NCBI GenBank assembly: GCA_020723435.1
Contig: DYIV01000005.1
Span: 1 to 46,861 of the forward strand
DNA length: 46,861 nt
Direction: 5' to 3'
From: Slackia heliotrinireducens
GTDB lineage: Bacteria > Actinomycetota > Aquicultoria > DYIV01
Below the pieces are notes generated by a model. It saw nothing but the letters and a program-made list of their open reading frames with translations, was not told where the DNA came from and searched no databases. Positions 1,101-40,805 of the stretch are shown here, in pieces. Both the position numbers and the translations under genes were made by a program. Within the stretch, counting starts at the first letter, position 1. Each line of letters starts with the position of its first letter.

Positions 1101-1643
1101 GTGAAGAAGCAATCATGCAGATCTGGCGGGAGCGACAAGCGAGCGACTCTTCGCCGCTACAGCACGCCAATCGCGGCTGTCATCGGCGCGGTCATGCTGA
1201 CCGCGCTGGGCTGCTCCGCTCCCCAGGCCGAGCCGCCGAGCGAGACGGCGCCGAGCCGGCCCGAGACTACCCAGCAGGAGGCGACGCCCACCGAGACCGA
1301 CGAGAGCACCGAGACAGCGACGAAGCTTGCGAAGAAAGACCTCGTCGTCGGCAAGGGCGCCGCGGCAAAGACCGGCGACAGAGTCAGCGTTCACTACACC
1401 GGCTGGCTGACCGACGGGACCAAGTTCGATTCGTCGCTCGATCGGGGGCAGCCCTTCGAGTTCGTCTTGGGCCAAGGCCAGGTCATCCCGGGCTGGGACG
1501 AGGGCGTCGTCGGCATGAAGGTCGGAGGCAAGCGTGAGCTCATCATCCCTCCCGACATGGCCTACGGCGATCACGGCGCCGGTGGCGTGATTCCTCCCAA
1601 CGCCACGCTGAAGTTCAACGTTGAGCTACTGGCGATCAAATAG
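1101..1643 (+). CDS. FKBP-type peptidyl-prolyl cis-trans isomerase, predicted lipoprotein
   Basis: In-frame GTG 1101 lies 5 nt after GGAGG. The 900..1100 part of the track ORF overlaps the upstream gene. Signal peptide with lipobox LTALG-C. The C-terminal core [56 protein letters not shown] is canonical FKBP. Confidence 0.9.
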
Positions 1644-1646
1644 GGT

Positions 1647-2408: not shown

Positions 2409-2426
2409 GTAATCCGGCCCCGGACG

Positions 2427-2435
2427 TGCTACAAT
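2427..2435 (+). promoter_or_regulatory. Candidate extended -10 promoter element (TGcTACAAT) for cspA, implying a ~110-nt leader
   Basis: TG at 2427-2428 and TACAAT at 2430-2435, about 113 nt upstream of the csp ATG. Long 5' UTRs are typical of cold-shock genes. No clear -35 element. Confidence 0.3.
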
Positions 2436-2547
2436 GCCGCGAGACGAGCCGGAAGGGCTCGGAGGACTGCGACGTGACGCACCGCTTCCTTGCGGCGACA
2501 ATCGCGTCGCTCTGTTTTGCCCCGTGGGGGCGAGAGGATGGGTTGGT

Positions 2548-2751
2548 ATGGCGGAAGGCAAAGTCAAGTGGTTCAACGCAAGCAAAGGCTACGGCTTCAT
2601 CGAGCGTGAGGATGGCGACGATCTGTTCGTCCATTTCTCCGAGATCCAGAGCGAGGGCTTCAAATCCCTCGACGAGGGTCAGGCCGTCTCCTTCGAAGAG
2701 ACGACCGGCGAGAACGGCAAGCAGCAGGCGACGAATGTGCGTCCCCTCTAG
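2548..2751 (+). CDS. cspA: Cold-shock protein (CSD fold)
   Basis: [33 protein letters not shown]... contains the RNP1 (KGYGFI) and RNP2 (VFVHF-like) motifs. ATG 2548 lies inside track ORF 2434..2751. Confidence 0.95.
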
Positions 2752-2909
2752 CTAGCCAACGCCCAGCTTGACGAGCACTTCACGGACCGGACGACTCCAC
2801 CCGAGTCGCCCGGTTCTTGGATTTGGCGCCTCATGCCGTGGACTGCGGTCCGCGATCGACAGCCATAGTCCGCGATAGACAACCAGCTCCTCGAAGGTGA
2901 AAGGCTGAT

Positions 2910-3950
2910 ATGAAGATAGGATTGGCGGGATTCGCCGGCTCCGGGAAGACGACGGTATTCAACGCGATGACGGGACTCGACGTGCCGGTGGGATTCGGCG
3001 GAGAGCTCAGGCTGGGAACGGTGCGTGTGCCCGACGCGCGGATCGACGCGCTGTCCAGCATCTTCTCTCCGAAGAAGACGACCTACGCCGAGATGATCTT
3101 CTGCGACATTCCCGGCGAGCATGGCGCCGACAGGAAGGGGCTGTCGACCGAAGCGCTGCAGCAGATTCGCGACCAGGATGCGCTCTGCCTGGTCTTGCGC
3201 GATTTCGCCAACCACTCCGTCGAGGGCGACACCGATCCCGCGCGCGAGCTGGAGGCGTTTCACACCGAGTGCCTCCTCGCCGACCTCGAGCTCGTTGAGC
3301 GCCGTCTCGACCGCGCCCGCAAGGATCACCTCACCGAGCAGGAGACGGCCGCCTTCGCCAGGATGAAGGATGTTCTGGAGGATGGGCGGCCACTGCGCGC
3401 CCTGCCCGGCGCCGAGCTCGACCGTGGCGCGCTGAGGGGTCTCGGCTTCTTGACGGACAAGCCCCTCCTGGTGGCGCTGAATCGCGGTGAAGCACGGGCT
3501 GGAGAGCCGATGCCGGATGACCTCGCGGCGCGGATTGGAGCTCTCGAGGCCGCCGGCCTGGTGCTCTCGGCAAGCGTCGAAGCAGAGATAGCGGAGCTGG
3601 AGGCCCACGAACAGGCGGCGTTCCTCGATGACCTTGGGCTGACCGACTCCGCGCTGGCGCGGTTCATCCGTACCGCCTACGAGCTGCTTGACCTCGTCTC
3701 ATTCTTCACCGTCGGCGACGATGAGGTGCGCGCGTGGACCATCCGTCGCGACACCCGCGCCCGCGAGGCCGCCGGCCGCATCCACTCGGACCTCGAACGC
3801 GGCTTCATCCGAGCCGAGGTGACTCCATACGACATCTTCATGGAGCACGGCTCGGAGCAGGCCGTCAAAGATGCGGGCTGTCTCCAGGTCGAGGGGAAGG
3901 ACTACATAGTCTCGGACGGCGATATCATGAGCGTCCGGTTCAATGTGTAG
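2910..3950 (+). CDS. ychF: YchF/OLA1-type Obg-family ATPase/GTPase
   Basis: P-loop GFAGSGKTTVFNAMTG at the N-terminus. The C-terminal TGS/DUF933-like end reads FFTVGDDEVRAWTI..G..A.EAAGRIHSDLERGFIRAEV...GKDYIVSDGDIMSVRFNV. Confidence 0.85.
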   Translation: MKIGLAGFAGSGKTTVFNAMTGLDVPVGFGGELRLGTVRVPDARIDALSSIFSPKKTTYAEMIFCDIPGEHGADRKGLSTEALQQIRDQDALCLVLRDFANHSVEGDTDPARELEAFHTECLLADLELVERRLDRARKDHLTEQETAAFARMKDVLEDGRPLRALPGAELDRGALRGLGFLTDKPLLVALNRGEARAGEPMPDDLAARIGALEAAGLVLSASVEAEIAELEAHEQAAFLDDLGLTDSALARFIRTAYELLDLVSFFTVGDDEVRAWTIRRDTRAREAAGRIHSDLERGFIRAEVTPYDIFMEHGSEQAVKDAGCLQVEGKDYIVSDGDIMSVRFNV

Positions 3951-12095: not shown

Positions 12096-15000
12096 CTATC
12101 TCACCCTGAGCGTTCTGGAGGAACTGACGCCGCTGGTGTGGTAGGTGTCGGAGGCGAGCACCACTCGCAGCGTGTATGTGGCGCGCGTCCACGGCCGCCA
12201 GAGACCCGTGTAGCGATTGTAGCGGTTCACCGTCGCGTAGGCGACCGTCACCCATGAGCCGCTCGAGGTGCGCCGCTGCAGCGCGACGCGTCGGCGGTAG
12301 TGACCGGGTTTGACCCAGCCCTTGAAGTAGTACCTCCCACCGCGCCGCACGCTCGACACGGCGGGCGCGAAGTAAACGCGGTGGGAGATGTATGTCGTGA
12401 TGGAGACCGATGACGCGTCGTGGTCGGCATCGCCCAGGAAGCGGACCTGGAGAGTCCCTCTCGTGCCCGGCCGAGCGCTCATGGAGAACGAACCCATCGC
12501 CGACGTGAGCGTGGACGCCACCAGATACCAGCGGCTCGACCGAACGGGACGCCAGTAGAGCCGCACCGTACTGCCGGCGTGGCGCGGCACGACCTCGCCG
12601 GCCACGGTCACGTAGTAGCCGTACGTCGCGCTGGCCGCGGCGCCGGGAGTAAGGTTCGTGACGCGAATCTCCGAGGCGGCCTTTTCGACGATGAAATCCT
12701 TCTGCATGATGGCGTCGGTCGTCTGCGACTCCGGCGTGCTCTCCCACGTCTGGTGTGCATCCCAGAACTCCTCGGACGTCACGGTAGCCACGGCGGAAGA
12801 GGTCACGTCATCGGTGTTCTTCACGCGCACGCTCACCGTCGCCGGCGTGCTCGTCGCTGGCATCGACAGATACAGCATCGGCGTGGTCGTGGTCTCAAGA
12901 GGCTGCTCGTAGCCATAGTCGCGCAGGGAGTCATCCTCATACTCGACGTCGACGACAGCGACGGCGTCGCGAACGACGCCTCCGGCCGCGGTCTGCAGAT
13001 TCAGCCGAATGCCGGTCCCGGCTGCCGGAGGTTTCGCCTGGCGCAGCGGCCTGGACGCGTCGGCGAGCTGTCCGATCGGCTCACCGTCGTCGTGCCTGCC
13101 GTTGCCGTCGACGTCGTAGTAGGCGCCCTGCAGCAGGAAGACCTGGTTGACCTGCGCGTCGGTTATTACGCCGTCATCGAGTGCGATGAACGCATCGTAG
13201 ACATCCTTCACGTTGCCCCGGTACTGTCCAAGCACCGCGTCCAGGGAGGCGAACGGCACGGTGATCGCCTCGTCGTCGGGCCCGCTCGGGTACGTGTCGT
13301 CGCTGTCGGTGAAGTCCCACATGATCCGCGCGACTACGTCCTCTTCCGTCATCGCGCCCCGGTTCGCGACGTAGTCTTGGTTCAACTCCAGATCGACGGC
13401 GCCGCCGTTGAACGCATACACCCACGGGCTGCTCGAACCGGCGGCCGGGTCGATGACGAACACGTGACTCGCCTTCATCACCGACGGGAAGTACATGGCC
13501 CAGCCCTCGACGAAACTGTCGGCGCTGCACTCGTTGGCCCAACCGGCATGGTTGGCGTCGCCCGGATGGAACGGCCACGGGCTGGCGGCAGGCGGCGTGT
13601 ACATGTCGAACTGCGCGTGATGCGCGAACTCGTGCCATTCGCGATTGACCGGGCGATCGGCGCTGCCGTAGCCGGCCGTATTGGCCCGGATGTAGATATC
13701 GTGATTGGCCGCCCAAGGATTCTCGTGATAGGCGCCGGTGCCGGCGGTCCCGACGACTATGTCCTCCGGCAGGGCCTCGTCGAGTGTGACTCCGAATAGC
13801 AGCGTCCAGCAGTCGACCGCCTGCTTGGTGTGGAAGTAGATCGCGGCGATGTCGTTCATGTCGGCGGAAGCCACGCCGGGCGACAGCGTCATACCCGCGG
13901 TGTTGGAGAAGTCGAAGTCTCGCGTGACGGCGCCGTTGGCGTCGGCGCTGGCCTTGGTGAAGAACCGTTTGGCGTAGATGGCGTCACCACCGGCTACCGC
14001 CCACAGCACGCGGAAGTTGGACGGATCGGCGTCGCCGTCTTGCAGGCTCACCTTGACGCAGTACTGCGTGGTGGCATCCATCACGAACGGGGTGAACGCG
14101 TAGGCGCCGCCGTAGCCTGTGGTGACGGTCTCGCGCGGGACGGTGTCGGTTCCTTCGAACAGCTCGACCCGAGTTTCCGCCAGCGCGTGGCCGTTGCCGT
14201 CGACCACCGTGCCCTTTACCTGGTTTGCCGGCGTGACCTCAATGGTGGCCTCGACGGATTCATCATCCTGCTCGCCGGTCACCGTCACCGTTCCCGCTCT
14301 GTACTTGGGCGTGAAGAGGCTTCGCGCGACGCCGCTCGCGTCGGTAGTCGGCGCCGCGTCTGACAGCGTTCCGTAGGTGAGGTCCGACAGCGACAGCCTG
14401 ACTGTCTCGCCTGGAATGGCGTCGCCGTTGTCGTCGGTGAGCGTCGCGGTGACGGCCGAGGTGGTCTCCCCGTCACCGGGCACCCGAGACGGCGTTGCGG
14501 TCACGGCAAGGTGTGTGTCCCCGCTGAGGATCGCGATGTAGTCGGATGCCGTGCTGCCCCAATGGAGGTAGCCGATGTTGCCCTTGAAGTAGGCGCGCAC
14601 CCTGATCCACTGGTTCGTCGCCGTGCGCGAGACATCGTAGGTGGCGCCGAAAGTCCTCCCTGACGCATATCTGTTCGTCCCCGGCACGTCGGGCTGTCCG
14701 TGCCATCCCTCGTAGGGCACGGGGCAGGTTTCGCTTTCAATCGCGGTCCACTGCCAGCCGTAATAGGAGTCATATCCAACACTCATGATCCCGGTCGCCG
14801 CCGGCGAGTAGCTCACGGTCGAGCCCGGACCCCAGATCGCGGCCTGGTACATGCCGGACGCCGCCCATCCGCTGTCGGTCCACACCCAACGCGGCTCGCC
14901 CACTCCGCCGTTGAGAACGGTGCCGGTTATGGTGAGCCTGTCGTTGCCCGGGCGCGTGAAGACGTGCTGGGAGACCCCTATGACACCCATGTCCGCGCCC

Positions 15001-15170
15001 CACCACGTTGCGCGCTCCTTCTCCGGCGGCGGTCCCAGCGCCGCATGCGCGTGGACCGGGATTGCACCGATGATAATGAAGATGGCGACCAGCGCCAGCG
15101 CGACGACTCCCGCCGTTCTGAGGCGCGCGTCAACGGTTCCCCATTGAGAACGCCCGCTCGCCACGCGCAT
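12096..15170 (-). CDS. Large secreted multidomain zinc metalloprotease (MA clan-like HEFAH...EGWAMY) with Big_1, CarboxypepD_reg-like and basic C-terminal modules
   Basis: Signal/anchor sequence VVALALVAIFIIIGAIPVHAHA. Invasin-type Ig domain (VPGDGETTSAVTATLTDDNGDAIPGETVRLSL...TTDASGVA). VKGTVVDGNGHALAETRVELFEG is carboxypeptidase-regulatory-like. HEFAHH is encoded at 13617-13634, with FVEGWAMYF downstream. Two Arg/Tyr-rich C-terminal modules. Start ATG 15170 (GAGGTGG upstream) is preferred to 15245. Confidence 0.75.
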   Translation of the reverse strand: MRVASGRSQWGTVDARLRTAGVVALALVAIFIIIGAIPVHAHAALGPPPEKERATWWGADMGVIGVSQHVFTRPGNDRLTITGTVLNGGVGEPRWVWTDSGWAASGMYQAAIWGPGSTVSYSPAATGIMSVGYDSYYGWQWTAIESETCPVPYEGWHGQPDVPGTNRYASGRTFGATYDVSRTATNQWIRVRAYFKGNIGYLHWGSTASDYIAILSGDTHLAVTATPSRVPGDGETTSAVTATLTDDNGDAIPGETVRLSLSDLTYGTLSDAAPTTDASGVARSLFTPKYRAGTVTVTGEQDDESVEATIEVTPANQVKGTVVDGNGHALAETRVELFEGTDTVPRETVTTGYGGAYAFTPFVMDATTQYCVKVSLQDGDADPSNFRVLWAVAGGDAIYAKRFFTKASADANGAVTRDFDFSNTAGMTLSPGVASADMNDIAAIYFHTKQAVDCWTLLFGVTLDEALPEDIVVGTAGTGAYHENPWAANHDIYIRANTAGYGSADRPVNREWHEFAHHAQFDMYTPPAASPWPFHPGDANHAGWANECSADSFVEGWAMYFPSVMKASHVFVIDPAAGSSSPWVYAFNGGAVDLELNQDYVANRGAMTEEDVVARIMWDFTDSDDTYPSGPDDEAITVPFASLDAVLGQYRGNVKDVYDAFIALDDGVITDAQVNQVFLLQGAYYDVDGNGRHDDGEPIGQLADASRPLRQAKPPAAGTGIRLNLQTAAGGVVRDAVAVVDVEYEDDSLRDYGYEQPLETTTTPMLYLSMPATSTPATVSVRVKNTDDVTSSAVATVTSEEFWDAHQTWESTPESQTTDAIMQKDFIVEKAASEIRVTNLTPGAAASATYGYYVTVAGEVVPRHAGSTVRLYWRPVRSSRWYLVASTLTSAMGSFSMSARPGTRGTLQVRFLGDADHDASSVSITTYISHRVYFAPAVSSVRRGGRYYFKGWVKPGHYRRRVALQRRTSSGSWVTVAYATVNRYNRYTGLWRPWTRATYTLRVVLASDTYHTSGVSSSRTLRVR

Positions 15171-15324
15171 GCCACAACCACCTCGAATAGACACGCCTAG
15201 CGCCATCCTTAACGGTTTCATCGGCAGGGTCGACGGTGGCCTCAAGGTGCGAGCGGCGCCTCACGCCGATGAATGGTCGCGCGGATTTTACATCATCCGG
15301 CCCGACACGTTACCATTGGCCTCA

Positions 15325-15760: not shown

Positions 15761-15845
15761 GGAGAGGTGGCAGAGTGGTTGAATGCGGCGGTCTTGAAAA
15801 CCGTTGAGCCGCGAGGCTCCGGGGGTTCGAATCCCTCCCTCTCCG
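15761..15845 (+). tRNA. tRNA-Ser (anticodon UGA)
   Basis: Acceptor GGAGAGG/CCTCTCC, anticodon loop CTTGAAA, long variable arm, T-arm GGGGG-TTCGAAT-CCCTC, discriminator G. CCA is not encoded. Confidence 0.95.
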
Positions 15846-15996
15846 CAAGTGTGTTAGAATCCACGGCGAACAAGACGTGGGGTCTCGTTTTCGAAACTCT
15901 GTACGCTGCGGTGGGGCTACAGTGGGACGAGCTATGGTACCAGGCACTGCAGATGCACACAGCCCTCACAGACCCTTTCCGAATCCTGCCGACCGA

Positions 15997-16317
15997 ATGA
16001 GCGGACGCCAGACGCCTCCTTCATCATCCATCCGTCGCGCTTGCGGACGAAGACATGTGCTGTCGGCCGCGCTCGCCCTCGCCTTGGCGGGTTGCATCCT
16101 CGTGCCCTCGGCGCCTGCGGCACAGGAGACGCGTCCATTCTCGCCGTTCGGCGTCGCCGCGCACCTTCTGTGGTCGGATAGGAGCAACCCGGAGGTGGAG
16201 CTCGAGCTGGACCGAATGGCCGCGGCCGGTGTCCGATGGGTCCGCTTCGACGTGGGGTGGGTGAGCTTCGAGCCCAACAAGGGTGACTTCAGTACCCACT
16301 TCGCCAACCGCCTTTGA
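15997..16317 (+). CDS. Clan GH-A (TIM-barrel) glycoside hydrolase, N-terminal segment (frame 1), ending at the CUU UGA C frame-change site
   Basis: ATG 15997. Signal peptide with lipobox-like [15 protein letters not shown]...[29 protein letters not shown] is the usual strand1-3 region of GH5/GH39-like enzymes. The reading frame stops at TGA 16315-16317 in mid-domain. Confidence 0.75.
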
Positions 16318-17638
16318 CTGGATAACGGCCGAGGCTCTCAATCGGGGGATCGAACCGCAGCTCAACATCATCAGCACACCCGGCTGGGCGAATAGCAATC
16401 GCGGCTGGCGGTACCCGCCTACCAACCCATCCGACATATCGGGCTTCGTCAACAAGCTGGTCTCGCGCTACAAGGGGCGCATTAGATACTTCGAGATATG
16501 GAACGAGCCGGACGCTTCGAGCTTCTGGCGCCCGGCCCCCGACGCCGCCGCCTACGTCCAGATGCTTCGGGCCGCCTACGTGGCGGCCAAGCAGGCAAAC
16601 CCGGACGCTCAGATCATCTCCGGCGGCCTGATGGGCAACGACACCGAGTATCTCCAGCAGATGTACGACGCCGGTGCCGGAGGCTACTTCGACTTGCTCG
16701 GGCTTCATCCATACACCGGCGCGCAGAGCCCGAACGAGCCGCCGGCGGAGTACAACACGCGCTGGAACTTCTACGGCATACCGTTGATGCGGGCGGTGAT
16801 GGACGCAAACGGAGACGCGGGCAAGAAGATCTGGGTCAGCGAGTTTGGCTGGCAGACGTCCGGGCACGGAGACGCCACCGTGAGTCTGGCTACTCAGGCG
16901 CGCTACGTCGGCGAAGCCTATGACCGCCTCTTCAGGGACTTCCCGTACATAGAGGCGATGTGTGTCTATGACTTCAGAAACGACGGCACCGATACGCGGA
17001 ACCCCGAGCACCACTTCGGTCTGCTCTACCACGGCTTCACGGCAAAACCCTCCTACTACACCTACGGCGGCTCATCTCTGGCGCTCTGGCCGAGAGGGCG
17101 CGTCTCGCTGACCCGGCCCGTTGTCCCCTACACATCGCGCAAGACACTTCTTCGACTGCGGCTTCCGGCCTCATGGGGAGAGTGCACCGTCACGATTCAA
17201 CGCCTGGTGGCCGGGAGCAGGTCATGGGAGACACTGCTCACGAGACGATCGCACGATGGGTACGTCAGCATGTATCGCTGGCCCACGTCCCGAAGGCTTT
17301 ACCGAGCATTGATTGACGGACATGACCCAACGCCGGCGACCAGAGTCCAGGTCCGCTCTGTGGCCACCATCGCCGCGTCGCGGAGCTGGGGGCGGCGGGT
17401 GCGATATGCGCGGGTGTCCGGCAGCGTGATCCACGCGCCGCGCACGACGGTCTGCCTGCGTCAAAGAGTCTCCGGCCGCTGGAAGACGGTACGACGGATA
17501 ACGACCGACGCCGGCGGCAGGTTCACCGCGCTTCTGCGCTTCTCGAGAAGCGGCAGATACTACTATCACGTTTGGTATCCGGGAAGCAGCAGGCTGATAG
17601 GCACGCGAAGCCGCAGCGTCCGCATCCTGGTCCGCTGA
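16316..17638 (+). CDS. Same glycoside hydrolase, C-terminal segment (frame +1) with catalytic NEP and SEFGW motifs plus two basic C-terminal modules
   Basis: In the +1 frame the domain continues seamlessly: (L)[18 protein letters not shown]..., YFEIWNEPD (acid/base), KIWVSEFGW (nucleophile). The GTG 16283 start in the track is not credible, because it would begin in mid-barrel with no signal peptide. Confidence 0.75.
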   Translation, partial: DWITAEALNRGIEPQLNIISTPGWANSNRGWRYPPTNPSDISGFVNKLVSRYKGRIRYFEIWNEPDASSFWRPAPDAAAYVQMLRAAYVAAKQANPDAQIISGGLMGNDTEYLQQMYDAGAGGYFDLLGLHPYTGAQSPNEPPAEYNTRWNFYGIPLMRAVMDANGDAGKKIWVSEFGWQTSGHGDATVSLATQARYVGEAYDRLFRDFPYIEAMCVYDFRNDGTDTRNPEHHFGLLYHGFTAKPSYYTYGGSSLALWPRGRVSLTRPVVPYTSRKTLLRLRLPASWGECTVTIQRLVAGSRSWETLLTRRSHDGYVSMYRWPTSRRLYRALIDGHDPTPATRVQVRSVATIAASRSWGRRVRYARVSGSVIHAPRTTVCLRQRVSGRWKTVRRITTDAGGRFTALLRFSRSGRYYYHVWYPGSSRLIGTRSRSVRILVR

Positions 17639-23705: not shown

Positions 23706-25031
23706 CTAGCGGCGATTGCGCGCCCGAGACCACCAGACGGCGCCGACGACCGCTCCAAGAACACCAAGCACGACGATGGCCAGAAGAGTCTTAGACAGCC
23801 CACCGCCGGCCGAATCCGCCGCGGCCTCCCCGTCACCGCCGATCGTCTTGGCCACGCTCGCCATGCTCGTGACCGGCACGGCGACCCCGGCTTTCTCCGC
23901 GAGTTCCTCAGGCGCCGAGCGATACTTCAGCGCCGCCTCGACCGTCACCGGCCCGCCGTCCGGGACCGCCAGTTCGTACTCCTGCGTCACCGACTCCTGC
24001 GGCGGGATCCTGTCGTCTTTGTAGATCGCCACAGCGTCCCACAGCTCAGCCGGGTAATTCCCCTTCTTGTCCTTCAGCACCGTCCCGAAGTCGCGACGCT
24101 CGGAGAGGATCTCTCGTCCACCGCTGTCGAGCGCCTTGACCTCGAGCCACATCTGACGGACCTCGGTCAAGCCGGTCGGCAGGTAGTGACCCGCCCCGAC
24201 GTTCGTGACTCTGACTTCGATCTTCGCCTTCTTGCCCACCTCAGCCGACCTCGGCACGTCGAGCTCGAGCTTGGCGGCCGCCTTCAGGTTCGCCTGAGCC
24301 GCCTTAGGATTGCCGAGGGCAACGTTGCCTCCGACGAAGGACATATCGTAGATATCCTCTCGCTTCGGCCCGCCCATCGCCGCCTGGCCCGGCCTTGGCT
24401 TCGACGGCCCCGGTCCGGGCGTCATGTGGCAATCCTGGCATACGATTCCTGCCTTGGCGTACGGACTGGCCTTCCACTCGGTGTAGGTGGCCTCCAAGTG
24501 CATCCCGTTGACCGGATGATCCACATTGTGGCACATACCGCAGAACTCCGCCCTGGTGTGATGCCGCGAGTACTCCGCCAGATGTATGAACGCCTCAGGG
24601 TCCTTGATCTGCGCCCGCTTCGTGCCGTCGGGGTTCACCACATACGACGCGTTGCCCAGCGGCACGCGCGTCCCCTGCACCTGATGGCAGAAGTCGCAGA
24701 AGACCCCCTGACGGGAAGCGGCGCTGATTTGCTCCAGCGCGCCGGGGTCCTCACCGCCCATCGTGGCGACAGGACCATGGCAGGAATCGCAGAATGGAGC
24801 GAGAGCGCCCTTCGTGGCGGCAATCGCGTCGGCTCGCTTCGCTCGGTAGATCGGGTCGCTCAGCGCCTTCGCATGCATCGTCGGCGTCCACTCGTCAATC
24901 ATCTCTTGATGGCACAGGCAGGCCATCGACGGCTTAAACTCGTTGGCCTGGATCTTTTGCAGTCCAAGCACGGGAGCGGCGGTGGCAAGAATCGTCCCGA
25001 GCACGGCAATGGCGACAAGTGGCTTCTTCAC
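23706..25031 (-). CDS. Exported multihaem c-type cytochrome with C-terminal TM anchor
   Basis: GTG 25031 follows AGGGGGA. Signal peptide KKPLVAIAVLGTILATAAPVLG. Four canonical CXXCH sites (CDSCH, CDFCH, CGMCH, CQDCH) plus an N-terminal ACLCH. C-terminal helix LLAIVVLGVLGAVVGAVWW followed by RARNRR. Confidence 0.85.
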   Translation of the reverse strand: MKKPLVAIAVLGTILATAAPVLGLQKIQANEFKPSMACLCHQEMIDEWTPTMHAKALSDPIYRAKRADAIAATKGALAPFCDSCHGPVATMGGEDPGALEQISAASRQGVFCDFCHQVQGTRVPLGNASYVVNPDGTKRAQIKDPEAFIHLAEYSRHHTRAEFCGMCHNVDHPVNGMHLEATYTEWKASPYAKAGIVCQDCHMTPGPGPSKPRPGQAAMGGPKREDIYDMSFVGGNVALGNPKAAQANLKAAAKLELDVPRSAEVGKKAKIEVRVTNVGAGHYLPTGLTEVRQMWLEVKALDSGGREILSERRDFGTVLKDKKGNYPAELWDAVAIYKDDRIPPQESVTQEYELAVPDGGPVTVEAALKYRSAPEELAEKAGVAVPVTSMASVAKTIGGDGEAAADSAGGGLSKTLLAIVVLGVLGAVVGAVWWSRARNRR

Positions 25032-25256
25032 GATGCTGGTCCCCCTTTGAAAGCACCTAGCTTGCTGAGGTCGGTACCCGCAACGCGGAACGTTCAAACG
25101 GTCTAGGCCAGGACGCATGCGCAAGGTGGGAGGCGGTCGGCCCGTTGCGGAGTCGCTTCGCGGTGGGCCGGGCCGACGGGAGGAGGCCGGGGGGACGCCC
25201 AGCGAACCCTATTGTATAATGTTCGCCGTGCGTGACCGGCACGAACCACATATGCC

Positions 25257-25346
25257 GGAGAGATGGCCGAGCGGCTGAAGGCACTCGCCTGCTAAGCGAG
25301 TAAGGGGTTAATCACTCCTTCGAGGGTTCGAATCCCTCTCTCTCCG
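25257..25346 (+). tRNA. tRNA-Ser (anticodon GCU)
   Basis: Acceptor GGAGAGA/TCTCTCC, anticodon arm CTCGC-CTGCTAA-GCGAG, long variable arm, T-arm GAGGG-TTCGAAT-CCCTC. A TATAAT hexamer lies at 25215-25220 upstream. Confidence 0.95.
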
Positions 25347-25368
25347 CCCGTGACCGCAGGGGGCTGCC

Positions 25369-30546: not shown

Positions 30547-30620
30547 GCGCCAGTAGCTCAGCAGGATAGAGCGTCCGGCTACGAACCGGGAGGTCGGGGG
30601 TTCGAATCCCTCCTGGCGCG
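30547..30620 (+). tRNA. tRNA-Arg (anticodon ACG)
   Basis: Acceptor GCGCCAG/CTGGCGC, D-arm GCTC-AGCAGGATA-GAGC, anticodon loop CTACGAA, T-arm GGGGG-TTCGAAT-CCCTC. CCA is not encoded. Confidence 0.95.
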
Positions 30621-30688
30621 CTAGGTCAACAGGGGTGTCGAGTCAATCGGCGCTGTTCCACTCAGGGTCGCGGGGGATCTGAGTCGGC

Positions 30689-31981
30689 ATGGTTGCGTGT
30701 GAGAGATCGCATTGCTTTCCGCGGCGGTCACCAGCCTATCCGCTGCTTGTTCGAAGTGATCAGGCGGTTCGCCTGCTCGCCCGCCTTGTTGGCACGTCAG
30801 CCGTTCTATCCGCTCTCATTCTCTGCGCGACTCCGGCGACCTCCCTCGCCTACACCCAGATCCTGGCCACCGGGTACAACGGCTACGGCGAGAGCAACGT
30901 GTCAAGTTGGCGATACATCGTGGAGGTGAGCGCGGGCAGTCTTCATACCGTGGGCCTCAAGGCGGACGGTACCGTCAGAGCGACGGGATACAACGGCGAC
31001 GGCCAGTGCAATGTCTCCGCGTGGAGAAACATCAAGCAGGTTTCCGCCGGATACAGCCACACCGTGGGCCTGCGACGTGACGGTACGGTCGCGGCGACAG
31101 GTGACAACGCTTTCGGACAGTGCGACGTCTCCACCTGGCGGAACATCAAGCAGGTGGCCGGCGGCGGCGCCCACACCGTGGGCCTGAAGTCAGATGGCAC
31201 CGCAGTAGCGACCGGAAGGCACTTCGAGAAACAGTGCGCCGTCGACGCCTGGACGCACATCACTCAGGTTGACGCGGACAACTACCACACCGTGGGTCTG
31301 GAATCGAGCGGAACCGTTGTGGCTGTGGGAGACGGCACGTACGGTCAGTGCAGCGTCTCGGGATGGCGAGGCATCTTGCAGGTGGACGCGGGCGCCGACT
31401 ACACGGTGGGCCTCGAATCGACGGGGACTGCTGCGGCTGTGGGAGACGCGAGATACGACCGATGCAACCTCTCCGGATGGCGAAACATCAAACAGGTGGC
31501 CGCTGGCGGCTCCCACACGGTGGGCTTGAAGTCAGGCGGCACTGTGGTGGCCGTCGGCTCGAACAACACCGGGCAGTGCAACGTCTCCGCATGGAGAGGT
31601 ATCCAACAGGTTGCCGCTGGGCCTGAGCGAACCCTGGGGATGAAGAAGCCCCAGGTGTACTTGTCGCGTCCCTGGACCTATCCGGCCTCGATAGGGCACG
31701 GCCGCGGCTTCTATATCTACGGCTTTCTGCGACCCTACCACTCCGGTTCGACGAGGATCTACTTCTACCGGCTCACTACTAGAAGGTGGCGTGGCCGGGT
31801 CTATCGAGGGTGGCGCTTGGTCGGGCGGCGCTACGCGCCCAACTACTGGCACAAAGGGAACACTCTGTACCGCCTGCCGTGCGCCCTGGCCTACGCCGGC
31901 TACTACCGCGTTCGAGCATATCATTCCGATGCCGGCCACTACCCGACTTGGAGCACCATGAGAACACTCCACGTGGAGTAG
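30689..31981 (+). CDS. Secreted RCC1-like seven-bladed beta-propeller protein with basic C-terminal module
   Basis: Hydrophobic signal region (TSAVLSALILCATPATSLA). Seven tandem 38-aa repeats of the form G.N..GQC.VS.WRNIKQV.AG..HTVGL..DGTV.A. The C-terminal ~110 aa are Arg/Tyr-rich. Confidence 0.85.
   Translation: MVACERSHCFPRRSPAYPLLVRSDQAVRLLARLVGTSAVLSALILCATPATSLAYTQILATGYNGYGESNVSSWRYIVEVSAGSLHTVGLKADGTVRATGYNGDGQCNVSAWRNIKQVSAGYSHTVGLRRDGTVAATGDNAFGQCDVSTWRNIKQVAGGGAHTVGLKSDGTAVATGRHFEKQCAVDAWTHITQVDADNYHTVGLESSGTVVAVGDGTYGQCSVSGWRGILQVDAGADYTVGLESTGTAAAVGDARYDRCNLSGWRNIKQVAAGGSHTVGLKSGGTVVAVGSNNTGQCNVSAWRGIQQVAAGPERTLGMKKPQVYLSRPWTYPASIGHGRGFYIYGFLRPYHSGSTRIYFYRLTTRRWRGRVYRGWRLVGRRYAPNYWHKGNTLYRLPCALAYAGYYRVRAYHSDAGHYPTWSTMRTLHVE
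30866..31648 (+). repeat. Seven tandem 114-nt coding repeats (RCC1-like blades)
   Basis: The period is 38 codons. Strings such as TGGCGnAACATCAAGCAGGT and CACACCGTGGGCCT recur at this period. Confidence 0.85.
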
Positions 31982-32205: not shown

Positions 32206-32475
32206 ATGATGTCGAGGACTCCAAACGCGATGAAGCTCATCGCAACGTGGACTGTCGTGCTCGCAATGGGTGCGTCCGCGCTCGCAACCTGCGCGGGGAT
32301 CATGCTCCAGACACGAGACCGCGACCGCGATCAGCTCAAAGACGGCAGCTGTCAGACTGCGAAGCTGCAGATTCGCGATCGAGATCGGCTGCGCGACGGC
32401 AGTTGTCAGACAGCGAAACTGCAGACTCGCGACCGTGACCGCGATCAGCTCAAGGACGGCAGCTGCAACGTCTAG
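32206..32475 (+). CDS. Small exported peptide with three Cys-containing charged repeats (function unknown)
   Basis: ATG 32206 follows AGGGGAGGAGGGG. Signal peptide MKLIATWTVVLAMGASALATCAG. Then LQTRDRDRDQLKDGSCQTAK / LQIRDRDRLRDGSCQTAK / LQTRDRDRDQLKDGSCNV. The repeats differ mostly by synonymous changes, which argues for a translated product. Confidence 0.6.
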   Translation: MMSRTPNAMKLIATWTVVLAMGASALATCAGIMLQTRDRDRDQLKDGSCQTAKLQIRDRDRLRDGSCQTAKLQTRDRDRDQLKDGSCNV

Positions 32476-36722: not shown

Positions 36723-37229
36723 CTAGGCTGCCCGCGCCGCCTTGTTGGCCTCCTCCTTGAGAACCTTGGCGTCAGCCTTGATCTCCTTCTTCATGGTCTT
36801 GGCCGCCCTGGACGTCAGCCGCTCCATGCCCCGCTCAATCGTGGGCTCGCCCACGAAGATGATGCCGGCCTCACCCTCATCGAGCATCTCGCCCAGCTCT
36901 CTGATGTCCCGGCGCGGCAGACCCACCGCAACGTGCGCCACGAGCGCGCCCAGACCCGCGCCGACGCCGGCCAGCAGCAGCATCGGGGGCCACAGCAGAC
37001 CAAAGAGCGCGCCGACGATGGCTCCCGCGGTCGCGTTGCGAGCGCGGATCGTCTCGTCTGTGTCGAGAATCTTGACCCTGCCCCCCTCCTCTTTCTCAAA
37101 CAGAGCCGCTTCGTAATGGCCGATGAACTTCTCCTTATGTAGAGTCTTGATGTCGTGGAAGTCCTCCTGCGCCGTCTCGAGATTCGCGTACTGAGCTCCC
37201 AAGACGACAAAACCCTCTCCTTCTGCCAT
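36723..37229 (-). CDS. DUF1269-like membrane protein
   Basis: ATG 37229 follows AGGAGG. The layout is a soluble beta-alpha N-domain (FVVLGAQYANLETAQEDF..IK.L), a Gly-rich TM pair (GAIVGALFGLLWPPMLLLAGVGAGLGALVAHV) and a second soluble domain. This matches the DUF1269 layout. Confidence 0.65.
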   Translation of the reverse strand: MAEGEGFVVLGAQYANLETAQEDFHDIKTLHKEKFIGHYEAALFEKEEGGRVKILDTDETIRARNATAGAIVGALFGLLWPPMLLLAGVGAGLGALVAHVAVGLPRRDIRELGEMLDEGEAGIIFVGEPTIERGMERLTSRAAKTMKKEIKADAKVLKEEANKAARAA

Positions 37230-37418
37230 GCTTCTTCTCCTCCTTCGCGTAGAACCACTCGTCCATCCGTGCCTCACGTGTGCCCCACAGCGTTCATGCC
37301 TAATCGGAGGGAGCAGAGATGGCGCCCCTTGAATCGACAAGCAACCTGCGCGGGTGCTAGCATCGAAGCATTCCTGTTGCGTGTCCGGTCGGAATCCGTC
37401 TCAGCGGGGAGGGATATC

Positions 37419-40400
37419 GTGGCGCGAGCGTTTGGGAAGTCCCCGGGGCGCTGGCTAGTCGTCATGGTCGCGTCTCTGTCGGCGATGGCCATGGTTGCCG
37501 GGTATGCGTGGGCCTACAAGCAGCCCGAACCCGGCCGCGGCACACGCGTTGCGCCGCGACTCGCCGCCGCGCCGAAGGCCCAGAAGCCGGCCGGCCGCCT
37601 CAACACCACGCTCGACCGGCTCGTCCGCCGCCGCGCCGCGGGCGGAACGGAATCCGCGCGTCTCTTCGCCCGAGAGCACGCGCTGGATGTCTCCGGCGAC
37701 ACCGTCGTCGTAGTCGTCGAGGCGGCCAAGGGAAAGAGCCCCGCAGCTCGCACGGCGATCAAGCACTCGGGCGCCGCCATCCTGCGCAGCTACGGCAATC
37801 TGATCAAGGCGCGCGCGCCAATCTCGAAGCTGGCGGCGCTTTCGGTCTCCGACGGCGTCAGCGCCGTCCGTCCTCCCATAAGGCCGGCGCCTGATATCAC
37901 CAGCGAAGGCGTGACCGAGACAGGGGCCGATCGGTGGCATGCCGTGGGAAACAACGGCGCCGGCGTCAAGGTGGGTATCATCGACGCCGGCTTCATCGGC
38001 TACCCGGCCATGCTCGGGACGGAGCTGCCCCCCAGCGTCACGACTTGGGGCGGAAGCGCCGGTGGAGATGAGAACGGGGGCTCCGAGCACGGCGCCGCCG
38101 TGGCCGAGGTCATACACGACGTTGCCCCCGGCGCGAGTCTCTATCTGGCTCGTATCGAAGACGACGTCGAACTCGGGTTGGCGAAGGATTGGATGAAAGC
38201 GCAGGGCGTCCAGGTCATCAATCACTCGATGGGCTGGTTCGGTACCGAAGGCGGCAACGGCTCGGGTCCCATCAACACAATCGTCAACGACGCGGTGGCA
38301 AACGGCATCTTCTGGGCCAACTCCGCCGGCAACGACCGGAGGCGCCACTGGATGGGCGACTTCACCGATACCGACATGAACAACTACATCAACTGGGACG
38401 GAACGGGCTGGGAGCTCAATACGTTCGGGGCCTACGAGGGCTGGCCGATAGTCGGGCACCTGTGGTGGAACGACTCTTGGACGAATGCTTCACAAGACTA
38501 CGATCTGTACCTGTATTGGTGGAACAGCGGCACCGAGGAGTGGGAAGAAGTCGATGGCTCTGCGAACGTTCAGGACGGATCGGCCGGCCGCACGCCTCAC
38601 GAGGCGATAGGCGTCTACGCCCCGGCGACGGGCATCTACGGCTGGGTAATCCACAGGTGGTCGGCCACCCAGACCAACGTCGACTTCGACCTCCACTCTT
38701 GGTATCAGGACCTCGACGAGCCGCTCAATCCAAACGGCCACTTCTTCGACCACGCGCGCAGCATCTCGGTGCCCGCCGACAACAACTCCAACGGATTCAT
38801 GGCCGCGGCGGCCATCGGCCGCGCAACCGGATACGCGCAAGAGGACTACAGCTCGGAGGGGCCGACCCGAGACGGCAGGACCGCTCCGGAGATCGCCGCT
38901 CCTTCGGACGTGCTCAATTCGGTGTACGGCACATTCCCCGGGACATCCTCATCGAGCCCTCATCTCGCCGGCGCGGTCGCCGTCATCAAGAGCGCGGCGA
39001 CCACCTGGACGGCGCAGGACATGGAGGCCCACTTCGAGGCCAACGCCGGCGATCTGGGCACGCCCGGCGCCGACAACCAGTTCGGCAGCGGCCGGTTGTA
39101 CATGTCTCCCACACCATTCACCCCGTCCGGCTCCATGGTCATCAACGGAGATGCGCCGTACGCAACCAGCGCCAACGTGACGGTGAATTCAGCGATAAGC
39201 GGGGCCAACTGGTTGCGTCTTCGCAACCTAGGCGGCGTCTGGAGCGGGTGGATGGGCTTCGCGTCGAGCAGCCCTTGGATGCTCAGCGCACAGGACGGCA
39301 CAAAGACCGTCGAAGCGGAGTATCGCAGCATCTTCGGTTTCTCGGCGACCTACCAGGACACGATCGTGCTCGATGCCACGCCGCCTTCGGGCACGATGTC
39401 TCTGAATGGCGGCGCCACGCATACGAACACGGCGGCCGTTGCCGTCAACTCCGCGGTGACCGGTGCGAGCGAGATGCGCTTCAGAGACTCCGGCGGCGCG
39501 TGGGACGGATGGGAGAGCTACAGCGCCGCCAAGTCGTGGGTGCTGCCGGGCGGCGACGGCACTAAGACGGTCGAGGCCGAATACCGGGACGCGGCGGGCA
39601 ATACGTCGCCGCTCTCCGACGACATCGTCCTCGATACCGCGGCCCCGATCGGAACGATGACGATCAACGACGATGAAGGCCACACGACAAGTCACGACGT
39701 GACGATCACGTCCTCGGTCGCGGGCGCCGATGAGATGCGGCTGAGGAACCCGGGGGGCGCCTGGAGCAGTTGGGGCTCCTACGCCGACGCGAAACCCTGG
39801 ACGCTGCCCGCTCCCGACGACACCAAGACGGTGGAGGCCCAGTATCGCGATCTCGCGGACAATACGCTGCCGCTCTCCGACACCATCCTGCTCGATTCGA
39901 CTTCGCCTTCCCCGCCGGGCGGTTTCAGCGCCACGCCCGGTGACGGCAGAGTCGACCTGGCCTGGACGCGGCCGCCCGAGCCCGACTTCGACGTTCTGAG
40001 GGTTCTGCGCTCCGACACGAGCTGGGCGACAAGCCCCACCGACACCGTCGGTCAGACGCTCGTCGTCGACGACACGTCCACGGTCGAGTCCTTCTTCGAC
40101 ATATCCGTCTCCAACGGAACGACCTACTTCTACAGCGCGTACTCACGCGATCAGCGGGGCAACTGGAGTGGTGGCGCGCATGCGTCCGCGCTGCCGCGTG
40201 CGCCCACGACAACCACCGCGACGACGTCGCGGGCGCTCGTGCTCTACGGCGACCCGGTCATCGTCTCGGCGACGCTCACCGACCCCGGCGGGCCGCTGGT
40301 CCTGATGCCGGGCATGGAGGTATGGGGTAGACCGCTGACGGGAGGAGCCTGGACCAAGCGGGCCGACGCGCCCTACGATCTTGTCACGTCGAGCTACCGG

Positions 40401-40805
40401 GCAGCGGTGCCCTGCACCCGCAACACGTACCTGAAGGCCAGATTCACCGGAAGCGCGCTGCATACGCCGAGCGAGTCCGCCGAGATGCTCGTTCGGTCTC
40501 GCGCCTGGCTCGGCCGTCCGTGGACGTACCCGCGCACGATCACCCACCAGCGCGCATTCTATATCTTCGGCTACGTCAAGCCACGCCACTCCGGCTATTC
40601 GAGGTTGTACTTCTACAGGAAAGTGGGCGGACAATGGCGCTTCTTGACGCAGCGACCGGCGAAGAACTACAACTACAAGACCTACAGTCGCTATCGGCTC
40701 AGGTATTGGGTACTCCGGCGGGGCTACTACTACGTGCGGGCCCTTCACTTCGATACGGACCACTACGGGACCTACGGCCCTGCGAGGGTCTTCTTCGTAA
40801 GATAG
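37419..40805 (+). CDS. Secreted subtilisin-like serine protease (S8) with three 87-aa repeats, FN3-like domain and two basic C-terminal modules
   Basis: GTG 37419 follows GGGGAGGGA (the 37155 start would overlap the divergent gene). Signal anchor WLVVMVASLSAMAMVAGYAWA. Catalytic triad GVKVGIIDAGF (D), SEHGAAVAEVI (H), GTSSSSPHLAGAVAV (S), and the oxyanion residue in NSAGND. A large insert lies between N and S. Confidence 0.85.
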   Translation: MARAFGKSPGRWLVVMVASLSAMAMVAGYAWAYKQPEPGRGTRVAPRLAAAPKAQKPAGRLNTTLDRLVRRRAAGGTESARLFAREHALDVSGDTVVVVVEAAKGKSPAARTAIKHSGAAILRSYGNLIKARAPISKLAALSVSDGVSAVRPPIRPAPDITSEGVTETGADRWHAVGNNGAGVKVGIIDAGFIGYPAMLGTELPPSVTTWGGSAGGDENGGSEHGAAVAEVIHDVAPGASLYLARIEDDVELGLAKDWMKAQGVQVINHSMGWFGTEGGNGSGPINTIVNDAVANGIFWANSAGNDRRRHWMGDFTDTDMNNYINWDGTGWELNTFGAYEGWPIVGHLWWNDSWTNASQDYDLYLYWWNSGTEEWEEVDGSANVQDGSAGRTPHEAIGVYAPATGIYGWVIHRWSATQTNVDFDLHSWYQDLDEPLNPNGHFFDHARSISVPADNNSNGFMAAAAIGRATGYAQEDYSSEGPTRDGRTAPEIAAPSDVLNSVYGTFPGTSSSSPHLAGAVAVIKSAATTWTAQDMEAHFEANAGDLGTPGADNQFGSGRLYMSPTPFTPSGSMVINGDAPYATSANVTVNSAISGANWLRLRNLGGVWSGWMGFASSSPWMLSAQDGTKTVEAEYRSIFGFSATYQDTIVLDATPPSGTMSLNGGATHTNTAAVAVNSAVTGASEMRFRDSGGAWDGWESYSAAKSWVLPGGDGTKTVEAEYRDAAGNTSPLSDDIVLDTAAPIGTMTINDDEGHTTSHDVTITSSVAGADEMRLRNPGGAWSSWGSYADAKPWTLPAPDDTKTVEAQYRDLADNTLPLSDTILLDSTSPSPPGGFSATPGDGRVDLAWTRPPEPDFDVLRVLRSDTSWATSPTDTVGQTLVVDDTSTVESFFDISVSNGTTYFYSAYSRDQRGNWSGGAHASALPRAPTTTTATTSRALVLYGDPVIVSATLTDPGGPLVLMPGMEVWGRPLTGGAWTKRADAPYDLVTSSYRAAVPCTRNTYLKARFTGSALHTPSESAEMLVRSRAWLGRPWTYPRTITHQRAFYIFGYVKPRHSGYSRLYFYRKVGGQWRFLTQRPAKNYNYKTYSRYRLRYWVLRRGYYYVRALHFDTDHYGTYGPARVFFVR
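39123..39905 (+). repeat. Three tandem 261-nt coding repeats (87-aa beta-sandwich-like domains) inside the S8 gene
   Basis: The Met codons of SGSMVINGD / SGTMSLNGG / IGTMTINDD lie at 39135, 39396 and 39657, exactly 261 nt apart. Each unit ends DGTKTVEAEYRD..GN.S.LSD.I.LD...P. Confidence 0.85.

Follow-up and report, generated by a model that had tools for sequence, protein, structure and literature searches.

The window analysed here, a stretch of 46,861 nucleotides, contains genes for two exported proteins, an RCC1-repeat beta-propeller and a multidomain S8 protease, which end in the same strongly basic, tyrosine-rich module (Table 1). The remainder of the two proteins is unrelated, as the initial annotation had held, with RCC1_2 and WD40_RLD matches in one and Peptidase_S8 in the other (Pfam). 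Both had also been credited with signal peptides, and by eye plausible Sec-type peptides are indeed present (...LVGTSAVLSALILCATPATSLA before YTQ and ...GRWLVVMVASLSAMAMVAGYAWA before YKQ), at about residues 98–120 of the S8 protease and, in the propeller, probably ending at about residue 54, the true start of this gene probably lying near position 30767. In the protease the module follows an Ig-like pre-domain, and the two together form the usual two-domain C-terminal cassette of the family, a homologous pre-domain being recovered by jackhmmer in 99 of 119 carriers; in the RCC1 protein the module directly adjoins the propeller, with no Ig pre-domain between. Pairwise similarity between the S8 module and its pre-domain is weak (E about 0.02), and hhalign finds no relationship between module and pre-domain. 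The ~87-residue repeat of the S8 protease recurs in other carriers of the module (P0005 and P0009). In the small repeat gene, scanning the DNA for tandem repeats found none. Judging from the ORF translations, both window copies run up to the stop codon, the S8 copy terminating in ...FFVR.

Table 1 Features of the window that bear on the C-terminal module
Feature	Position	Strand	Details
Two tandem divergent module copies, C-terminus of 1049-aa Big_1 protein (12096..15245)	12099..12677	-	Family HMM
C-terminal pair of very basic Ig-like domains, frameshifted glycosidase (16283..17638)	17093..17635	+	Net +12 and +20
Secreted RCC1-repeat beta-propeller gene	30689..31981	+	Longest ORF 430 aa; Pfam RCC1_2 9.6e-45 and WD40_RLD
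Basic Tyr-rich C-terminal module, copy 1 (RCC1 protein)	31652..31978	+	109 aa, net +16, pI 10.6; family HMM E=3e-31
Secreted multidomain S8 protease gene	37155..40805	+	Longest ORF 1216 aa; Pfam Peptidase_S8 aa 268-646, E=1.7e-20
Three tandem ~87-aa repeats in S8 protease	39126..39902	+	...GGxWSxW...DGTKTVEAEYRD...; without Pfam match
Near-neutral Ig-like pre-domain of S8 protease	40206..40496	+	Net +3; immediately 5' of module
Basic Tyr-rich C-terminal module, copy 2 (S8 protease)	40497..40802	+	102 aa, net +19, pI 10.8; family HMM E=1.7e-34

That the two tails are one module, as first proposed, is borne out by BLASTP (47/109 identities, 43%, E=4e-25). The RCC1 tail originally quoted is the exact translation of 31652-31978 on the forward strand, at the end of ORF 30689..31981; the quoted S8 sequence is likewise correct, but the coordinates given with it (40498-40802) are one base out of frame and translate to nonsense; the sequence is obtained from 40497-40802, which is in frame with ORF 37155..40805. 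At the DNA level the tails share only about 57% identity, which marks them as old paralogues and rules out a recent duplication or an assembly artefact as their origin. The hand counts for the S8 copy (17 Arg, 4 Lys and 16 Tyr against 2 Asp and no Glu; pI 10.8) proved accurate, and the RCC1 copy has a similar composition, with 17 Arg, 1 Lys and 16 Tyr (pI 10.6). Compared with 20 other genes of the window, the modules are enriched in Tyr (~15% versus 2.2%) and Arg (16% versus 7.7%) and depleted in acidic residues (2% versus 12%). The positions that are near-invariant in the family (P-R-H and A-Y-H-x-D-x-x-H) are kept in both tails.

The initial annotation counted four carriers in the window, of which the two described above are clear, a third is divergent and the fourth could not be upheld. 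With the family HMM, a profile of 138 terminal modules, the Big_1 protein scored E=6.9e-8 over the whole protein and about 3e-4 for each of its two domains, and hhalign placed the last copy in the family with a probability of 88% (E=3e-6). This copy keeps KPGH and SDxxH motifs and a terminal RVR, and net charge rises from +6 in the internal to +17 in the terminal copy; judging from their sequences, the tail domains of this protein are divergent members of the module family. The glycosidase tail gave no match with the family HMM, an hhalign probability of only 19% and a sub-threshold Pfam match to CarboxypepD_reg (E=0.13), so that it appears similar to the module in position and charge while homology was not demonstrable.

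The initial suggestion that the module is a beta-sandwich agrees with an AlphaFold2 prediction for copy 1, which gave eight strands at pLDDT 97 and pTM 0.86. Foldseek returned generic Ig/arrestin-like sandwiches only (best E 2.6e-4, TM ≤ 0.65); the VDUP-1 N-domain, TapA, a GH5 accessory domain and antibody V domains were rejected as meaningful homologues, being generic sandwiches of this kind. Sequence searches of the PDB with 2-sequence and 72-sequence profiles found no match. The module is also unnamed: the two window modules and 72 family members had no match in Pfam-A (2025) or NCBIfam 20.0, the T9SS models PF18962 (Por_Secre_tail) and TIGR04183 giving none at E ≤ 1, and none of the Pfam Ig models (Big_1, Big_13, CarboxypepD_reg and others) reached E=1 on the module. 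The reported lack of known wall-binding motifs likewise stands, as Pfam models for LPXTG, SLH, LysM, GW, CWB2 and choline-binding domains gave no match at E ≤ 1 on the RCC1 or S8 proteins, and models for LysM, WxL, SH3b/GW, SPOR, CWB1, CWB2, SLH and SLAP gave none at that threshold on the four window proteins and the 72 modules. There was no Pfam match to the sortase-dependent LPXTG anchor (PF00746) in the window proteins, and an LPxTG-like string is absent near the C-terminus of the RCC1 and S8 proteins, which is occupied by the globular module. A literature search, with most subscription journals outside its scope, found no description of such a domain or of its motif strings. The module is a new, unnamed domain family, of a familiar functional kind. 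Its conserved PRH...AYHxDxxH motif suggests a candidate ligand or metal site, and the His and Asp positions, which in RCC1-tail numbering include H30, H91, D93 and H96, probably cluster, as placed by strand order and Ig topology, at one pole of the sandwich.

To delineate the family, a two-sequence profile was run in an exhaustive HMM search with a cut-off of E ≤ 1e-3, which yielded 376 clusters at 50% identity. Near-restriction to the C-terminus, which an HMM scan had been proposed to check, is evident: 145 of the 150 best matches have no more than 10 residues beyond the module, and in the 29 genomic loci most copies end 0–1 residues from the stop codon. The last residue is Arg or Lys in 121 of 138 terminal modules, 100 of which end in V[RK]. 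Conservation reaches 0.85-0.94 at R40, R64, R80 and the terminal R/K, alongside the near-invariant His/Asp motif. One copy per protein is the rule (144 of the 150), with occasional duplicated or internal copies (P0021, P0037, P0048 and P0106) and two proteins, P0044 and P0081, made up of 6–7 tandem neutral or acidic copies of the module fold. The 29 related loci, of 12–20 kb each, come from 15 genomes of uncultured Actinomycetota (the label of these MAGs), in which several carrier genes occur per genome, often in tandem; because the loci were found through the central motif YGYLKPRH, this taxonomic picture is biased towards that motif. OY969691.1, CAVOYK01 and CAWDNM01 are examples of host genomes that are complete or nearly so. 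When 185,579 species genomes were scanned with the motifs closer to the window copies, GYY[RYL]VRAYH and FY[VI][FY]G[YF]L[KRW]P, no locus was confirmed. Queried with just the S8 tail, a word-index search for homologues returned no candidate, and a later word-index profile search returned short fragments only, which were labelled 'hypothetical protein' except for one 'Tol biopolymer transport system component'.

The terminal modules have a median net charge of +17 and a median pI of 10.5, and 96% of the 138 terminal modules carry a net charge of at least +8, whereas the passenger bodies have a median pI of 4.9 and the 105 residues upstream of the module a net charge of +3. In carriers with several copies the internal ones are mostly neutral and the last usually strongly basic, a gradient also seen in the Big_1 protein of the window. 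Thus, the internal copies of P0044 and P0080 lie between -5 and +2, neutral or acidic, as against +17 and +20 for their last copies, and in P0073 the charge goes from +2 to +9; in all three proteins the internal copies retain the His/Asp motif. P0037 combines copies of +14 and then +28, and P0021 is an exception in that its last copy reaches just +2.

The carriers are diverse. In 68 of them, 75 Pfam families are represented, each of a kind typical of proteins outside the cytoplasm, including FG-GAP, BNR/Sortilin, PPC, S8, RCC1, beta-helix, caspase, PKD and Big domains; many are non-enzymatic (propellers, FG-GAP and beta-helix proteins), most are not glycosidases, and an N-terminal hydrophobic segment is present in 83 of 108 complete-looking carriers. 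Of the two computational results that were to count against the initial reading, the database searches yielded neither: no match to a characterised family, and no random placement or cytoplasmic carriers. No conserved non-carrier neighbour that might represent a dedicated machinery was found in the 29 loci or near the window genes; recurrent non-carrier clusters consisted solely of alternative-frame ORFs and generic ABC ATPase similarity, and were rejected as machinery. The closest homologues of the RCC1 propeller have neither the module nor a known wall anchor, and P0186, the one examined over its full length, carries an N-terminal lipobox and InlB-B-repeat spacer domains in place of the module; this lipobox may represent an alternative tether for the same passenger, which is suggestive only. 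In one host genome the gene for a surface protein with CWB2 lies beside those of three carriers, which points to a host wall with secondary polymers and indicates that the CWB2 and module systems can coexist.

Most plausibly, the module would provide electrostatic wall anchoring, the best of the readings considered. We propose, tentatively and short of calling it probable, that it is a self-folding, Ig-like sandwich of ~100 residues acting as a putative C-terminal surface-retention domain, which we infer to bind envelope polymers. Following Sec-dependent export of the carrier via its N-terminal signal peptide, the cationic, Tyr/Arg-studded terminal domain would bind the anionic envelope polymers of the producer non-covalently, candidates being teichoic-acid-like or other acidic wall glycopolymers. 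The acidic passenger, be it a protease, propeller, beta-helix or other protein, would thereby be held on the cell surface, and the P-R-H of the B-C loop together with A-Y-H-x-D-x-x-H at the F-G hairpin might bind a specific ligand or a metal and so make the bulk electrostatic attraction more selective. Support for anchoring comes from the breadth of the family, its terminal position and charge, the contrast between internal and terminal copies, the extracytoplasmic carriers, the alternative tether, the host wall type and precedent. As to the latter, the high-pI wall-binding regions of Lactobacillus S-layer proteins have been proposed to bind teichoic acids electrostatically (PMC3666127), and CWB2 binds an anionic polymer (PMC4973711). 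The duplicated and internal copies are also easier to reconcile with a binding domain than with a terminal signal. What counts against anchoring is partly copy number: LysM, SLH, CWB2 and GW usually work as multiple tandem copies, unlike the single copy that prevails here. The high Arg and Tyr content, moreover, could equally serve protein–protein docking or attachment to polyanions outside the cell, for example eDNA, humics or minerals.

[quoted passage not shown] The module might instead be a sorting tag, read by an attachment or secretion machinery of its own, perhaps to be removed or covalently processed afterwards, which we consider unlikely without dismissing it. Its extreme C-terminal position, conserved V-[RK]-COOH end, presence as one copy in 144/150 proteins, fusion to 75 unrelated Pfam families and several to many paralogous carriers per genome within one lineage would all be as expected of such a tag, and the beta-sandwich falls in the size class of the T9SS CTD (PMC4560394). 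However, no conserved non-carrier neighbour accompanies the carriers in the 29 loci from 15 genomes or near the window genes, there is no match to Por_Secre_tail or an NCBIfam sorting domain, the hosts are apparently Actinomycetota, and Sec signal peptides are already present on the carriers; internal and tandem copies occur, and recognition would need no strong conservation of net charge beyond a short motif. A bolder version, to which we accord a similarly small chance, has the module serve as address tag in a hitherto undescribed system of surface assembly in uncultured Actinomycetota, either as a signal processed by its own attachment machinery, a monoderm analogue of T9SS CTD and PorU, or as a dockerin-like plug. 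Were it true, the His3/Asp site would be a recognition element or a metal-dependent latch and, in the dockerin-like version, dozens of exoproteins would be docked on a scaffold or S-layer of acidic same-fold copies.

Somewhat harder to credit is a CBM-like role, in which the module would bind external anionic material (for instance eDNA, acidic polysaccharides, mineral surfaces or humic matter) and concentrate the enzyme on its substrate or within a biofilm matrix instead of on the wall of the producer. A beta-sandwich of CBM size with many exposed-type Tyr and Arg at the C-terminus of enzymes would suit it, as would the weak Foldseek match to an accessory domain at the C-terminus of a GH5 mannanase (E about 5e-4); yet most carriers are not glycosidases and many are non-enzymatic, a common module on varied passengers suggests a common destination rather than a common substrate, and no Pfam CBM family matches the module. 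We give little credence to cohesin–dockerin-like docking on a specific acidic partner protein, such as an acidic same-fold scaffold or an S-layer, that would assemble the exoproteins into a surface complex. Dockerins are terminal, single-copy and found on many passengers, a pattern that the module shares; the carrier genes are clustered, and P0044 and P0081, with their tandem neutral or acidic copies, could supply the scaffold. These tandem-repeat proteins are nonetheless rare (2/150) and absent from the 29 loci, and generic high charge favours a polyanion over a specific protein partner. Equally improbable in our view is that the module has no special role, being an ordinary Ig-like stalk or spacer that comes last by chance, its composition reflecting lineage-specific drift. 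The generic Ig/arrestin-like fold without a distinctive structural neighbour and the weak kinship to the neutral pre-domain, detected pairwise but not by hhalign, would allow this, but a spacer has no reason for a strict terminal position, and drift accords poorly with the high charge retained in diverged terminal copies next to neutral internal ones, or with the conserved basic positions and near-invariant His/Asp motif.

Surface display of exoproteins is essentially unexplored in the uncultured actinobacterial lineages that are common in soils, sediments and the subsurface. Should anchoring be confirmed, the module would add to a short catalogue of wall-anchoring domains, about a dozen in number (PMC5817068). 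As it occurs on proteases, propellers and beta-helix, FG-GAP and BNR proteins, it offers a possible sequence handle for predicting the surface proteome. Being compact (~100 aa), confidently folding and highly cationic, it might also be used as a tag to display proteins on surfaces or to bind polyanions. As its members are at present annotated only as 'hypothetical protein', the family merits a Pfam/NCBIfam model.

Among known systems, the T9SS CTD (Por_Secre_tail, PF18962/TIGR04183) is likewise a terminal beta-sandwich of ~80-100 aa on unrelated secreted proteins with many paralogues per genome; it differs in that there is no sequence match, no CTD structure appears among the top 50 Foldseek matches, the module hosts are not Bacteroidota and no machinery was identified in the loci examined. 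To our knowledge, strong positive charge is not a feature of the T9SS CTD. Bacterial Ig-like domains (Big_1, Big_13, CarboxypepD_reg) share the all-beta sandwich of ~100 aa, and the neutral Ig domain usually found in front of the module is a distant relative of it, but the module is set apart by its distinctive motif, extreme charge and terminal position and by the lack of a Pfam Ig match. CWB2 (PF04122) and SLH (PF00395) domains keep a variety of exoproteins attached to secondary wall polymers that are anionic or pyruvylated (PMC4973711, PMC5817068); these domains work in threes and have another fold, alpha/beta or helical, and the module has no match to them. WxL domains (PF13731; Lactobacillales/Bacillales) are C-terminal, span ~120-190 aa, bind the wall non-covalently and are often encoded in clusters (PMC5817068), whereas the module lacks WxL motifs and a match to the WxL Pfam model and differs in composition, predicted fold and host lineage. 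The SLAP-type S-layer regions of Lactobacillus, finally, also place a basic region on a differently charged exported protein, with a proposed non-covalent, charge-driven attachment (PMC3666127). Sequence relationship is absent (no Pfam match) and the module hosts are uncultured Actinomycetota; and while the SLAP-type region is part of one S-layer protein, the module is a compact Ig-like sandwich that terminates many unrelated passengers.

The initial annotation had described the basic, Tyr-rich ends of an RCC1-repeat protein and an S8 protease as copies of one C-terminal module, and this description holds: the quoted RCC1 tail is the translation of its interval, the two tails align over their full length (43% identity, E = 4e-25), and the counts by hand for the S8 copy (17 Arg, 4 Lys, 16 Tyr, 2 acidic residues) are exact. 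The quoted S8 sequence is likewise correct, and only its start, placed at 40498, is out of frame by one base. Nucleotide identity between the tails is only ~57%, indicating old paralogues. Compared with 20 other window genes, the tails are enriched in Tyr (15% versus 2.2%, ~7-fold) and Arg (~2-fold) and depleted in acidic residues (~6-fold); their pI is 10.6–10.8, that of the S8 body 5.2 and that of the RCC1 body 8.8. Both proteins carry a Sec-type signal peptide, convincing when judged by eye, and neither matches a classical anchoring model in Pfam or has an LPxTG-like string near its C-terminus, as had been reported.

Features of the window discussed in the text, with position, strand and basis of the call
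Feature	Position	Strand	Basis
Big_1 protein, 1049 aa, ending in two basic Ig-like domains	12096..15245	-	
tRNA Ser-TGA	15761-15846		
Glycosidase gene, apparently split	15877-17638	+	
ORF: signal peptide, N-terminal part of glycosidase catalytic domain	15877..16317	+	
Apparent frameshift (approximate)	16283-16317		
ORF: remainder of catalytic domain, basic tail of two Ig-like domains	16283..17638	+	
Multihaem cytochrome c, Cytochrome_C554-like, several CxxCH motifs	23706-25124	-	
tRNA Ser-GCT	25256-25349		
tRNA Arg-ACG	30547-30621		
RCC1-repeat protein gene, 430 aa	30689..31981	+	ORF, Pfam
Module copy in RCC1 protein	31652-31978	+	translation
89-aa protein	32206-32475	+	
S8 protease (subtilase) gene, 1216 aa	37155..40805	+	ORF, Pfam
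Repeats in S8 protease (aa 658-916)	39126-39902	+	
Module copy in S8 protease	40497-40802	+	translation in frame of ORF 37155..40805

Searching 1.84 billion representative proteins exhaustively with HMMER and a profile of these two copies recovered 376 clusters at E ≤ 1e-3 and 59 at E ≤ 1e-10, which, where named by their sources, are called 'hypothetical protein'. The two tails and 72 family members scanned singly gave no Pfam-A or NCBIfam match, the module matched none of the named anchoring and sorting domains tested in these databases, profile searches of PDB sequences found nothing, and literature searches by motif strings and by description found no account of such a domain. By these comparisons the family is large and unnamed, and it makes a solid case for a new domain entry.

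The proposed C-terminal placement extends to the family, with the match ending ≤10 residues from the C-terminus in 145 of the 150 best proteins and most copies at 29 related genomic loci stopping 0–1 residues before the stop codon. In a 101-position profile of 138 terminal modules, P8, G24, P28, H30, G32, A54, G75, A81, D85, H88 and V100 are near-invariant and H83, S93, W46, Y65 and R40 reach 85–88%, the signature being P-R-H ... A-Y-H-x-D-x-x-H. Basic residues recur at alternate positions along the strands, conserved at 0.85–0.94 for each of R40, R64, R80 and the terminal R/K. Of the 138 modules, 121 finish with R or K, and 100 end in V-[R/K]. Median net charge is +17 (≥ +8 in 96%; pI 10.5), and the bodies of the carriers have a median pI of 4.9. 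A near-neutral Ig-like domain, homologous to that of the S8 protease, precedes the module in 99/119 carriers; the RCC1 protein lacks it. Many carriers (database proteins P0005, P0009, P0010, P0011, P0013, P0017, P0022, P0029 and P0045) have one Cys just 1–2 residues ahead of the module (C-R-A-Y-L...) and a second within the Ig domain upstream, a pair that suggests an inter-strand or inter-domain disulfide where the two domains meet.

AlphaFold2, given a 72-sequence alignment, very confidently predicted the all-beta fold anticipated by the initial annotation, with eight strands (pLDDT 97, pTM 0.86). Foldseek against the PDB returned only generic Ig/arrestin-like sandwiches (best E 2.6e-4, TM ≤ 0.65) and no informative structural relative, and as modelled the module fits the broad Ig-like fold class only. 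In RCC1-tail numbering, strand 20–27 is followed by the loop that contains H30, strand 83–93 has H91 and D93 at its end, and strand 96–100 opens with H96. Because the B-C and F-G loops of Ig-type sandwiches share one pole, we infer that these four residues cluster into a putative His/Asp site.

More than one copy occurs in 6 of the 150 proteins. Five of these have a copy at their C-terminus, and in four of the five this last copy is clearly the most basic. From N to C, net charges are −4, +20 in P0080, +2, +9 in P0073 and +14, +28 in P0037, and P0044 has eight matches, seven of −5 to +2 and a last of +17; P0021 (−3, +6, +2) is the exception. The seven copies of P0081 carry 0 to −4, none being C-terminal, and in P0048 and P0106 an internal module is followed by a polysaccharide deacetylase-like or other domain. 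Internal copies, most of them neutral or acidic, keep the His/Asp motif, so fold and motif are separable from charge. P0044 (775 aa) and P0081 (1073 aa), with 6–7 such tandem copies, closed in P0044 by one strongly basic copy, could be scaffold or stalk proteins and bear on the docking hypothesis considered below.

The 68 full-length carriers match 75 different Pfam families, most commonly FG-GAP, PSII_BNR/BNR/Sortilin, PPC, Peptidase_S8, Big_13, RCC1 and CarboxypepD_reg, with two carriers each for Beta_helix/NosD, PKD and Peptidase_C14; all are typical of extracytoplasmic proteins. A hydrophobic N-terminal segment is present in 83 of 108 complete-looking carriers, and most of the others are truncated gene calls, since they visibly start inside extracellular repeats. 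Those without the segment include P0111, whose N-terminal HTH would fit a RodZ-like membrane topology, and P0122, whose PurL-like N-terminus may result from an artefactual fusion. Scanning one genome per GTDB species by motif gave 28 loci, all in uncultured MAGs, mostly labelled Actinomycetes, Coriobacteriia, Thermoleophilia UBA2241 or Actinobacteria HGW-7, with some in 'Eubacteriales' co-assembly bins and one partial match in a 'Deltaproteobacteria' bin. At least six loci fall in one MAG, and carrier genes often form tandem runs of three to five.

The initial annotation had counted four carriers in the window. Pairwise BLAST of the Big_1 tail against the clear copies was marginal (0.006 to 3.2) and that of the glycosidase tail negative (6 to 15, or no match), and the two-copy profile found neither. 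With the 138-member profile, the Big_1 protein matches (whole-protein E = 6.9e-8) and the glycosidase tail does not; by hhalign, their last copies score 88% probability (E = 3e-6; KPGH, SDxxH and terminal RVR kept) and 19%, respectively. Two clear members and a divergent third are thus present in the window; the glycosidase tail is analogous in charge and position, its homology being unproven. The glycosidase gene seems split by a frameshift, owing either to pseudogenization or to an error in the assembly. It lies just downstream of tRNA-Ser-TGA and the RCC1 gene 67 bp downstream of tRNA-Arg, placing two basic-tail genes directly after tRNA genes.

Three tandem ~87-aa repeats in the S8 protease (...GGxWSxW...W.L...DGTKTVEAEYRD.AGN...D.I.LDT..P) have no Pfam or NCBIfam match, recur many times in other carriers (e.g. 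P0009, P0005) and look like another unnamed family, this one of extracellular repeats. The 89-aa protein, predicted to be secreted or lipoprotein-like (signal ...ALATCAG), contains three imperfect repeats of Q(T/I)RDRDR(DQ)L(K/R)DGSC, with no Pfam match and no tandem repeat at the DNA level. The cytochrome, which has a signal at its N-terminus and a transmembrane anchor at its C-terminus, apparently shows a different tethering of an exoprotein in the same organism.

A self-folding unit that is strictly last in its protein, extremely cationic only when last, present as many paralogues per genome, confined to one lineage and borne by varied acidic passengers with Sec signals would be expected to carry many kinds of passenger to a shared anionic target beyond the membrane, most economically the producing cell's own wall polymers. 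We tentatively regard the module as a surface anchor on these polymers, at somewhat below an even chance. There are precedents in Lactobacillus S-layer proteins, with their high-pI wall-binding regions (PMC3666127), in WxL C-terminal domains (PMC5817068) and in CWB2 binding to an anionic polymer (PMC4973711). On L031, a host MAG contig, a 777-aa PKD/Cadherin/Big_9 protein with a precomputed CW_binding_2 (PF04122) match (1016-3349, +) lies beside three module genes, so a known wall-polymer-binding system coexists with the module. The closest RCC1-propeller homologues (54–60% identity) lack the module, and one of them, the lipoprotein P0186, carries spacer domains at its N-terminus; the same passenger is thus tethered differently, which weakly supports anchoring.

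The main rival, a sorting tag for a dedicated machinery, would agree with the single-copy, exactly terminal pattern but is unlikely, given that internal or tandem copies exist and no machinery gene is linked: no non-carrier gene recurs beside carriers at the 29 loci, and the neighbours of the window carriers are signalling proteins, none of them envelope machinery. Targeting of external polyanions seems quite improbable, and docking onto an acidic partner protein, or a role as 'just a spacer', very unlikely.

The family is a reasonable experimental target. Its function is one that we infer, with nothing mechanistically unprecedented, and functionally the module looks like a new family of a known kind, the C-terminal surface-retention domains of monoderm bacteria, among which it is marked out by its one compact sandwich, its extreme richness in Arg and Tyr and its His3/Asp signature.
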